The notes: generated from the letters alone by a model not told the origin. A DNA stretch of 64,000 nucleotides from Candidatus Babeliales bacterium (GCA_050179755.1 JBFXEV010000001.1:9994-73993), one strand, 5' to 3'. Positions 27,804 to 32,463 are shown, counted from the stretch's first letter. Program-made: numbers and translations.

Positions 27804-29231
27804 ATGGACATGATCGACACAAATAAGCGTAAAGAATCAACGCGTACCTCTGACCTTGGCTCGCAACGTAGTTATAACGACGTTGTTGAATTTCTGAATG
27901 CCAATTGGTCGGCCGAACGTACCGATAAAAAATTAACTACTATCAAGCAACTTGATAAAGCACTTGGTTATCCCTCAAAAGCTACCAATGCAATTCTTGT
28001 AGCTGGTACCAATGGTAAAAGTTTAACTATTAACTTTGCCACACAGCTTCTAAAAGAAGAAGGCCTTTCAGTAGGTGCGCTTTATGCACCACACATACTT
28101 ACCTATAACGAGCGATTTGCAGTAGATGGCCAATCTATTGCCAATAAACAATTTACTGATATTGCAAATGAAGTCATTTCAGCTGCACATATTAATAATA
28201 TTGCTGCAGATACACAAGATATGCTCGTTGCAATTGCTTTGCTTTATTTTAAAGAACAAAAAGTTGATGTTGCCTTCTTAGAAGTAGCAGCTAACAGTGT
28301 ATGCGATCCGGTTAATATTTGCGCTCCAAAAGTTCTTGCTATTACGCGTATTACTGATGATCAAATAGATTTACAAGATCTGAGCGTTGCTGCATGGATT
28401 GACCGCTTAACTGAAATGGTGCAACCAGGCACGTGGGTGGCATCTGCTGATCAAAGCAAATTGAACTTACAAGTGGTCCTTAAAAATGTAAGTGAACGTG
28501 GCGGCCAATGGGGCATGCCAATTAGAAAATTAGCACCTTTAGGTTATCCTTTTGAACAATTACATGGCCGTTGTGCAGCACTTGCTGAGCGAATTTGCCA
28601 ATTGTACATCGATAACTATGTAACAAATGATTCAATTATTGTATCGGACAGCCTTCTTGCAAAAGAAAAAGGCCGCCGTGGTCGACCAACGCTTGAGGCA
28701 AAACGCCAAGCGGAATTGAATCCAAAGAAAACTATTGATCAATACTGGCGTGACGTGGTGAGCACGTTGCCAGGTAGATTCCAAATTCTTTCAAAAGAAA
28801 AACCAACTATATTACTTGATAACGCATGCAATATTGATGCGCTCAAAAATTTATTCTTAGGCATTCGCTTGCTCCATTATCAACGCCCACTTAAAGGTAT
28901 TACTTTTATTTTGGCTTGCGATAAAGACAGCATGCATACGGAAGAGTTTTTACGTGCGTTACGTTACTTTGCAAAAAAGAATACTACAAATGTGGTCTTT
29001 TGCCCTCTTGAAAACCAAATTGCTGGTGTACACGAAAATTCATGGGACGTTGAGCAAATAACTAATGATGTAAAAACATTAAAAATCAAGGCTCGTTCTG
29101 CAAAATCATTTGATGATGCATTTGAAATGGCAAAGAAATCTGTAGATGAACGGCAAGGACTGGTGGTTATTACCGGCTCTAAATCAATCATTGCACAATT
29201 CTGGCATCACAAAGGCATCAAGAAGTTCTAA
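27804..29231 (+). CDS. Divergent FolC/Mur-ligase-family protein
   Basis: VAGTNGKS P-loop, PH..YNERF, LPGRFQ, LLDNACN (for DGAHN) and VITGS. Confidence 0.75.
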   Translation: MDMIDTNKRKESTRTSDLGSQRSYNDVVEFLNANWSAERTDKKLTTIKQLDKALGYPSKATNAILVAGTNGKSLTINFATQLLKEEGLSVGALYAPHILTYNERFAVDGQSIANKQFTDIANEVISAAHINNIAADTQDMLVAIALLYFKEQKVDVAFLEVAANSVCDPVNICAPKVLAITRITDDQIDLQDLSVAAWIDRLTEMVQPGTWVASADQSKLNLQVVLKNVSERGGQWGMPIRKLAPLGYPFEQLHGRCAALAERICQLYIDNYVTNDSIIVSDSLLAKEKGRRGRPTLEAKRQAELNPKKTIDQYWRDVVSTLPGRFQILSKEKPTILLDNACNIDALKNLFLGIRLLHYQRPLKGITFILACDKDSMHTEEFLRALRYFAKKNTTNVVFCPLENQIAGVHENSWDVEQITNDVKTLKIKARSAKSFDDAFEMAKKSVDERQGLVVITGSKSIIAQFWHHKGIKKF

Positions 29232-29235
29232 TTGC

Positions 29236-29550
29236 ATGATACTTGGCCCTACGCTACTATCCATGTTGATTGGTATAGTAACAGGAATATTTTATTACGG
29301 CCTTTCTTTTGTAGGAATACAAAGGAACGGCCGTTTCTATTCTCACCAAAAAACTAGGCCAACAACATTCCCCTTTTCTTACCTTTATATGTCTACCATT
29401 CGCATACTCATAATATCTTGTCTATTCTATCTAATATTGCGCTTACCACACATTAACCCTATACTAGTAGTAATAATGTTTATGTGTGCGTTCTGGTCAT
29501 TATTATTAGGTAGGGATCTTAATCTATGGAATCGTTTGACCACCTTTTAG
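29236..29550 (+). CDS. atpI: ATP synthase protein I-like membrane protein
   Basis: Small hydrophobic protein immediately before atpB. Likely ATG at 29236; the track starts at 29146. Confidence 0.55.
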   Translation: MILGPTLLSMLIGIVTGIFYYGLSFVGIQRNGRFYSHQKTRPTTFPFSYLYMSTIRILIISCLFYLILRLPHINPILVVIMFMCAFWSLLLGRDLNLWNRLTTF

Positions 29551-30257
29551 ATCCTAAAACAATCAATCTTCTTGCCCCATTTGGCATAGACAACAAATTA
29601 TTCTATGTTAATGAGGAAATAATTCTTAATACGTGGCTGGTTCTTTTCATTATACTACTACTGGTGCTTGTTTTACGGTATTATACACGAAAAAAAAGGA
29701 GCATTGGCAGGTCTATTGCTATTTCTATAGTATCGGCATTTATTGATTTAACTACAGAAACTCTTGGCGCATTCCATTATAATCATACCGTCTTTATAGG
29801 CAGCATATTTATTTTTATTCTCATATGTAACTGTATTGTGGTAATTCCTGGCGCAGATGAGCCAACGCGTGATTTAAATACTACAATCGCCCTTGGAGCA
29901 ATTTCCTTTTTATATAAAGAATATTTTTCTATTAAAGCACACGGCTTTTTGGGATATCTAAAAGAATTTACACATCCATTTGCTGTAATGTTTCCACTGA
30001 ATGTAATTGGTCATCTTTCTAAAGTTGTTTCACTCTCATTTCGGCTTTTTGGAAACATCTTTGGTGGTGCAATTATTTCCACCATCTATAAAGGATTTAT
30101 AACATCATCGATTATCTATCAACTTGCTGGCTTATTCAGTGGTCTCAATTTAATAGTACTATTATTTTTTGGTATATTTGAAGGACTTATTCAAGCCTTT
30201 GTTTTTGCAATGCTCTCACTTACCTATCTATCAATAGCGCTTCAAGGGGAAGAATAA
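29526..30257 (+). CDS. atpB: F0 ATP synthase subunit a
   Basis: PT.DLNTT, SLSFRLFGNIF with the essential Arg, and EGLIQAFVFAML. Confidence 0.95.
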   Translation: MESFDHLLDPKTINLLAPFGIDNKLFYVNEEIILNTWLVLFIILLLVLVLRYYTRKKRSIGRSIAISIVSAFIDLTTETLGAFHYNHTVFIGSIFIFILICNCIVVIPGADEPTRDLNTTIALGAISFLYKEYFSIKAHGFLGYLKEFTHPFAVMFPLNVIGHLSKVVSLSFRLFGNIFGGAIISTIYKGFITSSIIYQLAGLFSGLNLIVLLFFGIFEGLIQAFVFAMLSLTYLSIALQGEE

Positions 30258-30261
30258 AAAC

Positions 30262-31212
30262 ATGGAACAATATGCATACTTTCTCCATTTTATAAGCATT
30301 GGACTAGTAGTAGCATTAACATCTATTGGTGTGGGCATTGGAGCGGGATTTACCGGGCAAGCTACCGTGCGCAATTTATATCGCCAGCCTGGTGCCGCAA
30401 CTGATCTTTATAAAGCTTCATTTATCAGCTTAGCTCTTGTGGAAACCTCCGGTATTTTTAGTATTGTTATGGCATTTATTCTTCTTTTTAATAAAGAAGT
30501 GCCCAATTTTTTTGGCAGTATTGGCACGCTTGGTATTGCTTTTGGACTTGGGATTGCAGGATTTGTAACGGGCATTTATTCATCATTGCCTGCGCAAGCA
30601 GCCTTTAAAGCGATTGCTCGTCAGCCCTTTTTTGCTCCTCGCATTATTAACTTGATGGTCATCGCCCAATCACTCATTCAAACACCAGTAATTTTTGGGC
30701 TCATTGTCTCATTACTTATTAGCGCATCTATCAGCTCCGCTCAAATGCTTGCAGAAGGCACTCAACTACTTGCTGCTGGCCTGTGTATTGGCCTTGGCAG
30801 CATTGGTCCAACTATTGGCCTTGGCAGATTTACGTATGAAGCTTGTTATACTGCAGGAATCAATCGCTCAGCATATGGCAAGATTGTACCGTTTACTCTT
30901 ATAAGTGGTGCCATTATTGAAACGCCGCTTATTTTTACACTTATTGTTGCCTTACTAGTTACCCAAACAACATTTGAAAATTCATTTGTAGAGATAGTAA
31001 TTCCGTTTATGGCAGCTTTGTGTATGGGATTAGGAGCACTCGGCGCTGGCCTTGCCTCATCACGCACAGCAACTGCTGCATGTATTGGCATTGGCAAAGA
31101 TCCACATGCAACTTCTTTAATCTCTAAAGCAAGTTTGGTAGCACAAGCGCTTATTGACGCGATTGCTATATATGCTTTGCTTATTGCCTTGTTAATGATA
31201 TTCTTAAGATAA
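30262..31212 (+). CDS. atpE: F0 ATP synthase subunit c with four fused hairpins (316 aa)
   Basis: Four GxGxGxG helix-loop-helix units with loops RQP, RQP, INR and KDP; follows atpB. Confidence 0.9.
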   Translation: MEQYAYFLHFISIGLVVALTSIGVGIGAGFTGQATVRNLYRQPGAATDLYKASFISLALVETSGIFSIVMAFILLFNKEVPNFFGSIGTLGIAFGLGIAGFVTGIYSSLPAQAAFKAIARQPFFAPRIINLMVIAQSLIQTPVIFGLIVSLLISASISSAQMLAEGTQLLAAGLCIGLGSIGPTIGLGRFTYEACYTAGINRSAYGKIVPFTLISGAIIETPLIFTLIVALLVTQTTFENSFVEIVIPFMAALCMGLGALGAGLASSRTATAACIGIGKDPHATSLISKASLVAQALIDAIAIYALLIALLMIFLR

Positions 31213-31311: not shown

Positions 31312-32463
31312 ATGAGAGAGCAAGCAATGAAAAAACAACCCCATATCATCTACATTATCACCAAACTTGAACTTGGTGGTGCTCAAAAAATTTGTCTTGC
31401 ATTATTTAATAACGCAGACCCATCTTGCACTTCCTTAATTTCTGGAACTAAAGGGCCGCTTACTGAACTTGTTAAAGACAAACAAAATGTATATTTATTA
31501 CCACAGTTAACGCGTGAGATTTCTTTTTTTGGCGTATTCAATGAACTCAGTGCGCTCTGGGCGATTACTCAAAAATTACGACAATTAAAGCGAATGCATG
31601 GCAATGTAATCGTACACACGCATAGCACCAAAGCTGGCTTACTTGGCAGATGGGCAGCTTTCTTTGCGGGCATACAAACACGCATACATACCGTACATGG
31701 TTATTATGCGTTTCATGAAAATCAAAATATTATTATTTGGACTATTACCTATCTATGTGAACTAATCACTAGTTTTGTAACAACTCATTATGTTTGTACT
31801 ACCTCACACGATGTAGAAGAAGGAATTCGATTATTACCACATTTTAGTTCTCGCCATTCAATAATTCGCCCTGCTGTAAGTGTAGAGCAATTTATCCCAG
31901 CTCATCAAGCTGCATCTTTTCCTCAAGAAAAAGAATTATTTGTTTTTGGTTGTGTGGCATGCTTTAAACCACAAAAAAATATTTTTGATCTACTACAAGC
32001 ATTTCGCTTAGTACATATCCATAATCCAAAAACTCGTTTGGAACTTATTGGTGACGGCGCATTGCGACCTGCCATTGAAGATTGGATTCAAGCTCATCAA
32101 TTAACAGAAGTAATCACCTTGCATGGCTGGCAAGATAACGTGGCGGCTATCATGAGCTCGTGGCATGCTTTTGTATTAAGTTCATTGTGGGAAGGAATCT
32201 GTATGGCAATAGTAGAAGCGCGTCTGCTTAAATTACCAATACTATCCTATAATACTGGTGGCATTAAAGACGTTGTAATACATGGTAAAAATGGTTTTTT
32301 ATATCCTCAAAAACAATGGCAACAACTTTCACATGGCATGCTTGCACTAAGCACAAATGCTTTATTACATACCAAATTACAATCTCATGCTGATAACCTT
32401 AATGAATTTTATATTGAAGATATGATTGATCGACATCGAAAACTATATCAATTAATAAAATAA
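31312..32463 (+). CDS. GT4-family glycosyltransferase
   Basis: ELGGAQ, HTHSTKAG, HTVHG, KPQKN and SSLWEG...EA. Confidence 0.9.
   Translation: MREQAMKKQPHIIYIITKLELGGAQKICLALFNNADPSCTSLISGTKGPLTELVKDKQNVYLLPQLTREISFFGVFNELSALWAITQKLRQLKRMHGNVIVHTHSTKAGLLGRWAAFFAGIQTRIHTVHGYYAFHENQNIIIWTITYLCELITSFVTTHYVCTTSHDVEEGIRLLPHFSSRHSIIRPAVSVEQFIPAHQAASFPQEKELFVFGCVACFKPQKNIFDLLQAFRLVHIHNPKTRLELIGDGALRPAIEDWIQAHQLTEVITLHGWQDNVAAIMSSWHAFVLSSLWEGICMAIVEARLLKLPILSYNTGGIKDVVIHGKNGFLYPQKQWQQLSHGMLALSTNALLHTKLQSHADNLNEFYIEDMIDRHRKLYQLIK

Follow-up and report, generated by a model that had tools for sequence, protein, structure and literature searches.

A four-hairpin c subunit with a conserved blank site coexists with a single-hairpin c subunit in the genomes of Dependentiae

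The atpB-c4 locus and the anatomy of c4

The DNA analyzed here is a 64,000-nt stretch (the window) from Candidatus Babeliales bacterium, a member of the phylum Dependentiae (GCA_050179755.1 JBFXEV010000001.1:9994-73993). It encodes a protein in which four hairpins of the c subunit of rotary ATPases are fused in one open reading frame (ORF), hereafter c4 (Table 1). Against PF00137 (ATP-synt_C), c4 scored 116.4 bits in four stretches (Pfam cut-off 24), and a PF00137 scan of the whole genome placed all four hairpins in one 324-amino-acid (aa) open frame, with single hairpins scoring 26.7 to 45.1 bits each. The top NCBIfam models are those for F0F1 subunit C (TIGR01260 with 58.8 bits, cut-off 43.95), whereas V-type K models gave 38 to 50 bits against cut-offs of 101 to 211. 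Judged from these profiles, c4 is F-type and not V/A-type.

The column of the ion-binding carboxylate, a membrane-buried residue in the second helix of a hairpin, was assigned by aligning the four c4 units with each other and with the single-hairpin c subunit encoded elsewhere in the genome. It holds E61 (LVETS), Q140 (LIQTP), E220 (IIETP) and D299 (LIDAI), so that the second hairpin carries a glutamine where the others carry an acid. The loops of units 1 to 4 read YRQPG, ARQPF, GINRS and GKDPH, RQP having been lost from units 3 and 4. Hairpin 1 has Ala28 at the position of the Gln ligand of Na+-type c subunits; in an alignment with c2 of Acetobacterium woodii, A28 is paired with the Gln and E61 with the Glu. 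The unit nearest to the genome's single-hairpin c is hairpin 4 (31% mean identity, the highest of the four). An AlphaFold2 model built from an alignment of 118 homologs has eight helices in four hairpins, with a mean predicted local distance difference test score (pLDDT) of 95.3 and a predicted template modeling score (pTM) of 0.90, and the hairpins are joined by short, periplasmic linkers of three to seven residues.

The gene directly upstream of c4 is atpB, which encodes the F-type a subunit and ends 4 bases before the start of c4. It gives the single PF00119 match genome-wide and is thus the sole a subunit; the essential Arg is present (SLSFRLFGN). The arrangement recurs in 62 Dependentiae loci with a fused c, which span Babeliales, Vermiphilus pyriformis, Chromulinivoraceae and TM6 bins: atpB is directly upstream in 62/62, often with a 4-base overlap. 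Between atpB and the folC-like gene lies a small membrane ORF, initially listed from position 29146, for which the internal Met at 29236 was taken as the start to remove an overlap with folC. A homologous small ORF of 83 to 109 aa (E < 1e-5) occupies the same place in 25 of the 62 loci. With a PF03899 match below the cut-off, it is possibly an AtpI-like ring assembly factor.

An earlier note made from this DNA alone had described four c-units in one ORF, three carboxylates and one Gln, and the loss of RQP from loops 3 and 4. All of these features hold, the PF00137 domain count being four. The same note was mistaken in placing none of the other atp genes next to c4, given the position of atpB both here and in every related locus.

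Table 1. Features of the c4 locus, in window coordinates, and the four atp gene pieces of the genome, in coordinates of contig C1
Feature	Position	Strand	Description
Four-hairpin F-type c subunit (c4)	30262..31212	+	316 aa plus stop, ATG start, internal stops 0
c4 hairpin 1	30262..30501	+	residues 1-80; loop YRQPG; E61 (codon 30442-30444), LVETSGIF
c4 hairpin 2	30502..30741	+	residues 81-160; loop ARQPFF; Q140 (codon 30679-30681) replaces carboxylate, 'blank' site
c4 hairpin 3	30742..30975	+	residues 161-238; loop GINRS; E220 (codon 30919-30921), IIETPLIF
c4 hairpin 4	30976..31209	+	residues 239-316; loop GKDPH; D299 (codon 31156-31158), LIDAIAIY
atpB, F-type a subunit	29526..30257	+	243 aa; PF00119, 136.6 bits
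Small membrane ORF between folC and atpB	29236..29550	+	weak PF03899 (ATP-synt_I) match, E 0.024, 15.5 bits, below cut-off
folC-like Mur-ligase gene	27804-29231		upstream of the atpB-c4 pair
GT1 glycosyltransferase	31312-32463		downstream of the atpB-c4 pair
atp piece 1	C1 39.5-41.2 kb		AtpI-like/a/c4
atp piece 2	C1 762.5-765.7 kb		c/b'/b/delta/alpha
atp piece 3	C1 401-403 kb		beta/epsilon
atp piece 4	C1 907.6-908.5 kb		gamma alone

Conservation of c4 and of the separate single-hairpin c subunit

A search of a large protein collection, in which 8000 candidates were scored, gave 248 c4 homologs at E ≤ 0.001. The few that are named belong to Candidatus Dependentiae or Babeliales, and identity across the family is 40 to 83%. 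Residues were counted in 118 homologs of 315 to 325 aa, drawn from the 120 listed of the 248. At the carboxylate position, hairpin 1 has E in 116 homologs and D in the other two, and hairpin 2 has Q (113), M (4) or V (1), with an acid in 0/118. Hairpin 3 has E in all 118, with P222 and F225 also invariant, and hairpin 4 mostly has D (81) or E (34) and rarely G (2) or S (1), with Y304 kept in 117. The acid-blank-acid-acid pattern is therefore conserved, and is the product neither of chance nor of decay. The blank hairpin also has the best-conserved loop of c4, a nearly invariant R-Q-P-F-F (R120 in 117, Q121 in 118 and P122 in 118 of 118), and Q140 and its surroundings are among the best-kept positions of the protein. 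The Gln-ligand position of hairpin 1 varies across the family (E 56, Q 35, G 18, A 7, C 1, H 1).

Identity is 21 to 28% between the four hairpin classes and 44 to 55% within a class; on these values the classes are old paralogs. Quick trees were built from the hairpins of 30 c4 sequences, taken as every fourth of the 118, together with 21 single-hairpin c subunits. Each c4 hairpin class formed its own clade (support 88 to 99.5), and hairpins 1 and 2 were split from hairpins 3 and 4 and the single-hairpin c with a support of 87, the grouping of hairpin 4 with the single-hairpin c reaching only 52. When hairpins of the Desulfobacterota proteins described below were added, no one-to-one pairing between the hairpins of the two phyla emerged, and the order of the deep hairpin duplications cannot be drawn from some 80 columns.

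The source genome, a single 1.525-Mb contig estimated to be 96% complete, has one rotary ATPase, a complete F-type enzyme whose genes are spread over four loci (Table 1). Searches of the genome for another atpE and for atpFHAGDC, both proposed in the earlier note, were productive. The fifth PF00137 hairpin, at C1:762576-762767 and about 720 kb from c4, is an 81-aa single-hairpin c subunit (hereafter the single c) with an intact site, Q...ESTxxY. It is followed by two b-like ORFs (b' and b; 120 and 163 aa, without Pfam match), delta (OSCP) and alpha, and gamma, beta and epsilon complete the set. The beta subunit (496 aa) shares its locus with an 83-aa epsilon and keeps the P-loop GGAGVGKT, GERTRE and DELSDED; gamma (287 aa) lies at another locus. 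A multi-hairpin c with a Gln blank and a separate single c, the gene set of the hybrid rotor of A. woodii, are hence both present, with the multi-hairpin gene directly after atpB and the single c gene at the head of another operon. A second rotary ATPase was considered and rejected: the third ATP-synt_ab match is Rho, and V/A-type catalytic subunits were not found in the genome.

A PF00137 scan of 121 Dependentiae genomes (17 families, 81 genera) gave matches in every genome, with five hairpins in 111, four in nine and two in one, the last being a 120-contig assembly. Among the matches listed, the open frames measured either 82 to 136 aa or 315 to 354 aa. Both c genes persist together throughout the phylum, in genomes of 0.8 to 1.9 Mb, and the finding of five hairpins in 111 of 121 genomes argues that the single c is not a relic. 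In 20 single c loci that were fetched, c is followed by delta and alpha in all 20, and b' and/or b are present in 18. The 20 single c subunits all carry the Glu and the Tyr of the site, and 19 carry Ser or Thr after the Glu and, likewise in 19, the helix-1 Gln. Their loop is [KR]-x-P, in which Gln is not conserved.

Multi-hairpin relatives in Desulfobacterota and known fused c subunits

The first matches of c4 included two proteins of 483 and 487 aa with six hairpins, which read E,Q,Q,Q,Q,Q at the carboxylate positions. A search with one of these six-hairpin proteins gave 1887 proteins at E ≤ 0.001 (8000 scored), most of them in length classes near 322, 404 and 485 aa, which correspond to four, five and six hairpins. 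Named members are annotated as ATP synthase F0 subunit C of Deltaproteobacteria, Desulfobacterales, Desulfobacteraceae, Desulfosalsimonas and Thermodesulfobacteriota. Examples are P0082, P0109, P0127, P0131 and P0140 (483 to 490 aa), P0138, P0166, P0186, P0209 and P0215 (404 to 406 aa), and P0150 and P0151 (322 to 323 aa). Ten of 12 proteins inspected have Glu in the first hairpin only and Gln in all others; the other two (P0230, P0212) have Glu in the last hairpin too, and P0212 begins inside its first hairpin. The four-hairpin examples read E,Q,Q,Q in 12/12, and their partner single c reads ESTGIY.

Of 80 metagenome loci kept (L100-L179), the 32 with a length of 8 kb or more were used to count gene order. 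The multi-hairpin c gene has atpB directly upstream in 31 of these loci, the remaining one beginning at the c gene, and an ORF of single-hairpin c size directly downstream in all 32. The multi-hairpin c measures 322 to 327 aa in 25 loci, 404 to 405 aa in three and 487 aa in three, and was over-called in one. Locus L174 runs on with b', delta, alpha, gamma and beta.

The alignment of c4 with P0150 is colinear, with 33% identity over residues 4-315 on 6-322, and pairs E61 with E, Q140 with Q, E220 with Q and D299 with Q. Since this identity exceeds that between the hairpins of c4 itself, the four-hairpin architecture looks common to c4 and its Desulfobacterota relatives. The two groups also share the motifs ET/ES..IF, RQP...QTP.IF and ..ST.IY, a gene position after atpB and a single c partner. 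They differ in that the Desulfobacterota proteins usually have one acid, in the first hairpin, and in that their single c is the next gene in the same operon. The hosts differ as well, the Desulfobacterota being free-living anaerobes that presumably synthesize ATP, in contrast to the energy parasite that encodes c4. With one acid per four to six hairpins, a ring built of the fused protein only would be implausible in Desulfobacterota, as the carrier-free stretches would be long. These relatives would have to build mixed rings, and homology makes the same most likely for c4.

Two further proteins, those longer than 553 aa, have a different composition and no bearing on the c4 ring. P0121 (1147 aa) contains 15 c-type hairpins and P0122 (642 aa) eight, with Glu in every unit (AEALGIY), and both resemble archaeal A-type rotors made of one chain or nearly so.

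Comparison of c4 with solved structures leads to the A. woodii enzyme, the analogy drawn in the earlier note, both by sequence and by fold. The top Protein Data Bank (PDB) sequence match is 4BEM_J, A. woodii c1 (residues 12-153 on 29-175, E 5.6e-11), with E61 on the Glu and Q140 on the Gln of hairpin 2. The same entry, 4BEM, is the best PDB match of the genome's single c, whose Gln and Glu align to those of hairpin 1 of A. woodii c1. A Foldseek search with the c4 model placed 4BEM_J first (TM score 0.76 on the target). E. hirae NtpK and V-type c subunits of eukaryotes came next, and no solved chain was found to span all four hairpins.

The A. woodii rotor is described as nine single-hairpin c subunits plus one c1 (PMC9171764), and C. 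aceticum as having the same pair of c subunits, with Q....ET followed by Q....QT (PMC7911925). c4 resembles these c1 subunits in its F-type context, in its gene position directly after atpB and in the existence of a separate gene for a single-hairpin c, and further resembles A. woodii c1 in having ETSGIFS with its acid in hairpin 1 and Gln instead in hairpin 2. It differs in having four hairpins rather than two and three sites per four hairpins rather than one per two, as the extra two hairpins, which A. woodii c1 lacks, keep their acids. In addition, hairpin 1 of c4 has Ala at the Gln-ligand position, unlike A. woodii c1; the single c gene, adjacent in A. woodii, is here about 720 kb away; and a respiratory chain and Rnf were not found in the c4 genome for the families searched.

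Fused hairpins are familiar from V/A-type proteolipids such as E. hirae NtpK, yeast c/c'/c'' and archaeal K subunits with 2, 3 or 13 hairpins. Like c4 they combine fusion with the loss of some carboxylates, and they account for ranks 2 to 18 of the fold matches. They can assemble into mixed rings in which the odd subunit, such as yeast c'', occurs once. What sets c4 apart is the adjoining F-type a subunit and the better fit of the F0F1 subunit C models. The reports consulted (among them PMC9171764 and PMC7911925) present c-subunit fusion with loss of sites as characteristic of V/A-type enzymes, the F-type exception being A. woodii c1. A full-text literature search, of incomplete coverage, found no description of an F-type c subunit with more than two hairpins in Dependentiae or elsewhere, and the literature search likewise found no paper on the multi-hairpin c family of Desulfobacterota. 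Apparently new are the phylum-wide pair of single c and c4, the short epsilon subunit described below, and the link to adjacent multi-hairpin and single c genes in Desulfobacterota.

Direction of work, ion and ring composition

The view of the host as an energy parasite, taken in the earlier note, is borne out by the genome content. Three TLC nucleotide transporters are encoded, and searches of the 96%-complete genome for the COX1, cytochrome bd, Rnf/Nqr and complex-I/Mrp antiporter families found none, while control genomes responded. As ATP can be imported through the TLC transporters and these respiratory pump families were not found, the F1Fo enzyme probably works as an ATP-driven ion pump that energizes the membrane. 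Yeoh et al. describe TM6 as lacking an electron transport chain and propose that ATP hydrolysis by the ATP synthase keeps up the gradient (PMC4776705). The epsilon subunit consists of the N-terminal sandwich only (83 aa; G000:C1:~402520-402771, or 2520-2771 of locus L008). In bacterial epsilon, the domain that inhibits is formed by the two C-terminal helices (PMC9317440). Because the epsilon subunits measure only some 80 to 95 aa, with open frames of 79 to 123 aa in the 60 of 61 Dependentiae genomes with a match, this C-terminal inhibitory helical domain appears to be missing across the phylum.

The Na+ ligand set of c subunits comprises Gln or Glu in helix 1 and Glu, Ser/Thr, Thr/Ser and Tyr in helix 2 (positions 32, 65, 66, 67 and 70 of I. 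tartaricus and F. nucleatum; PMC3692424). The single c aligns with the full set, and Na+ is a reasonable guess for the ion at its sites. The four c4 hairpins have A, S, L and S at position 32, and units 1 to 3 have Phe at position 70. One single c departs from the rule: at locus L095 (G077:C2) it reads GMG for GQG and EAV for ES/ET, with Glu and Tyr kept. With two Na+ ligands lost, this may be a lineage that switched ion.

We propose that c4 is a rotor subunit of the organism's only rotary ATPase, to which it would contribute four adjacent hairpins. Its place in the rotor is suggested by the PF00137 hairpins, the eight-helix model, the adjoining sole atpB gene, the intact a and beta motifs and the presence of the F1 genes. 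E61, E220 and D299 would carry ions. Q140, always uncharged, would act as a blank and move past the arginine of the a subunit with no ion transported. In the arrangement that we favor with moderate confidence, c4 is present at low copy, probably one, in a hybrid ring with several single c subunits that serves an ATP-driven ion pump. c4 would be co-translated with the a subunit and then join the single c subunits, as A. woodii c1 does with c2/c3, giving a ring whose number of sites is the number of single c subunits plus three, on that number plus four hairpins. A hybrid ring is indicated by the intact single c kept phylum-wide, by the likeness to A. woodii c1 and by the gene pairs of Desulfobacterota. 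The earlier note had named as its fallback a hybrid ring that includes a normal c subunit from another locus, and this is now the better-supported reading.

Several observations weigh against this proposal. The co-conservation of c4 and the single c fits two alternative rings equally well, and the tight spacing of atpB and c4 argues only for a low copy number, which a c4-only ring of two to four copies would satisfy too. The ribosome-binding sites of c4 and the single c are similar, both of the GGGG type, so that no difference in expression can be read from them. The c4 sites do not have the full Na+ ligand set, and a uniform Na+ ring is not obvious. The genome also encodes a membrane pyrophosphatase, which could supply a gradient for ATP synthesis. 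Finally, one site lost in about 10 to 12 would shift the ion/ATP ratio only slightly, and re-gearing poorly explains the conservation of Q140.

The strongest alternative is a ring made of c4 only, in which two, three or four copies would give 8, 12 or 16 hairpins and 6, 9 or 12 sites, with the single c forming an alternative ring (for example at another life stage) or persisting as a relic. c4 is indeed a complete, highly conserved and confidently modeled arc of four hairpins, it is encoded with the a subunit, and three of its four sites are under strong selection; in archaea, single-gene multi-hairpin rotors have been reported (PMC9171764). However, in 20/20 genomes the single c still has an intact site and sits in the stator/F1 operon, the five hairpins found in most of the phylum speak against a relic, and the genome provides one a subunit and one F1 only for two kinds of ring. 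The Desulfobacterota relatives, mostly with one acid per four to six hairpins and an adjacent single c, likewise point to mixed rings. We therefore consider a c4-only ring unlikely, and less likely than a hybrid ring. The ring of two or three fused copies with 6 or 9 sites that the earlier note had put first is not favored, in view of the intact single c throughout the phylum and of the Desulfobacterota gene pairs.

Since the change in ratio would be slight and hairpin 2 is strictly conserved, gearing alone is an insufficient explanation of the blank, and a structural role for Q140 and hairpin 2, in nucleating assembly on the a subunit or in docking gamma/epsilon, is possible. In its full form this idea makes c4 a single, asymmetric structural keystone of the hybrid ring, which would nucleate ring assembly on the a subunit together with an AtpI-like protein and dock gamma/epsilon at a fixed point through the RQP loop of the blank hairpin, which would be the one canonical RQP loop in the ring. 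It draws on the R-Q-P-F-F loop being the best kept of c4 (R in 117, Q and P in all 118), in contrast to the [KR]-x-P of the single c, which has no conserved Gln, and to hairpins 3 and 4, which have no RQP. The AtpI-like ORF before atpB fits as well, AtpI being a named assembly factor of the A. woodii and C. aceticum enzymes (PMC7911925). The argument is, on the other hand, one from conservation, the AtpI assignment is weak (E 0.024), and the idea refines the hybrid ring rather than excluding it; as an explanation in its own right it seems improbable. That c4 stands outside the rotor, as a separate membrane device with the a subunit or as a non-functional fusion carried along, would suit the separation of atpB and c4 from all F1 genes and is nevertheless highly improbable, given that the single c and F1 genes also need the sole a subunit, that the site residues are invariant in a family of 40 to 83% identity, and that the same gene pair lies within a complete atp operon in Desulfobacterota (L174).

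The number of ion sites in the c-ring sets the number of ions per ATP and is the main natural 'gear' of rotary ATPases. Against this background, an F-type four-hairpin subunit with a strict acid-blank-acid-acid pattern occurs across a whole phylum of energy parasites, and sulfate-reducer-type metagenomes commonly contain colinear relatives of four to six hairpins, most of which have a single acid. Provided that the ring is hybrid, these proteins would make up a natural rotor series with one to five blank sites, in which one could test the number of blanks that a rotor can bear and the way in which assembly and coupling cope with an asymmetric ring. An ATP-driven pump of this kind would help explain how respiration-less Dependentiae energize their membrane from imported ATP. 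A broader speculation, which we regard as doubtful, is that c4 and the Desulfobacterota c subunits of four to six hairpins belong to a single class of F-type hybrid rotors that is ancient, widespread and so far undescribed. Its keystone would be made together with the a subunit, would blank one to five sites and so set the ion/ATP ratio in fine steps, and its RQP hairpin would fix the register of the stalk; the parasite enzyme, with three sites in c4 and no epsilon inhibitory domain, would work only as an ATP-driven Na+ pump.

The flanks of the atpB-c4 pair are stable. In the 62 related loci, folC lies upstream in 56 and the GT1 glycosyltransferase downstream in 38, and atp pieces 1 and 2 keep their neighbors (folC, dNK) phylum-wide. 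A functional link of c4 to folC or GT1 is not obvious, and we note the two genes as a stable neighborhood.

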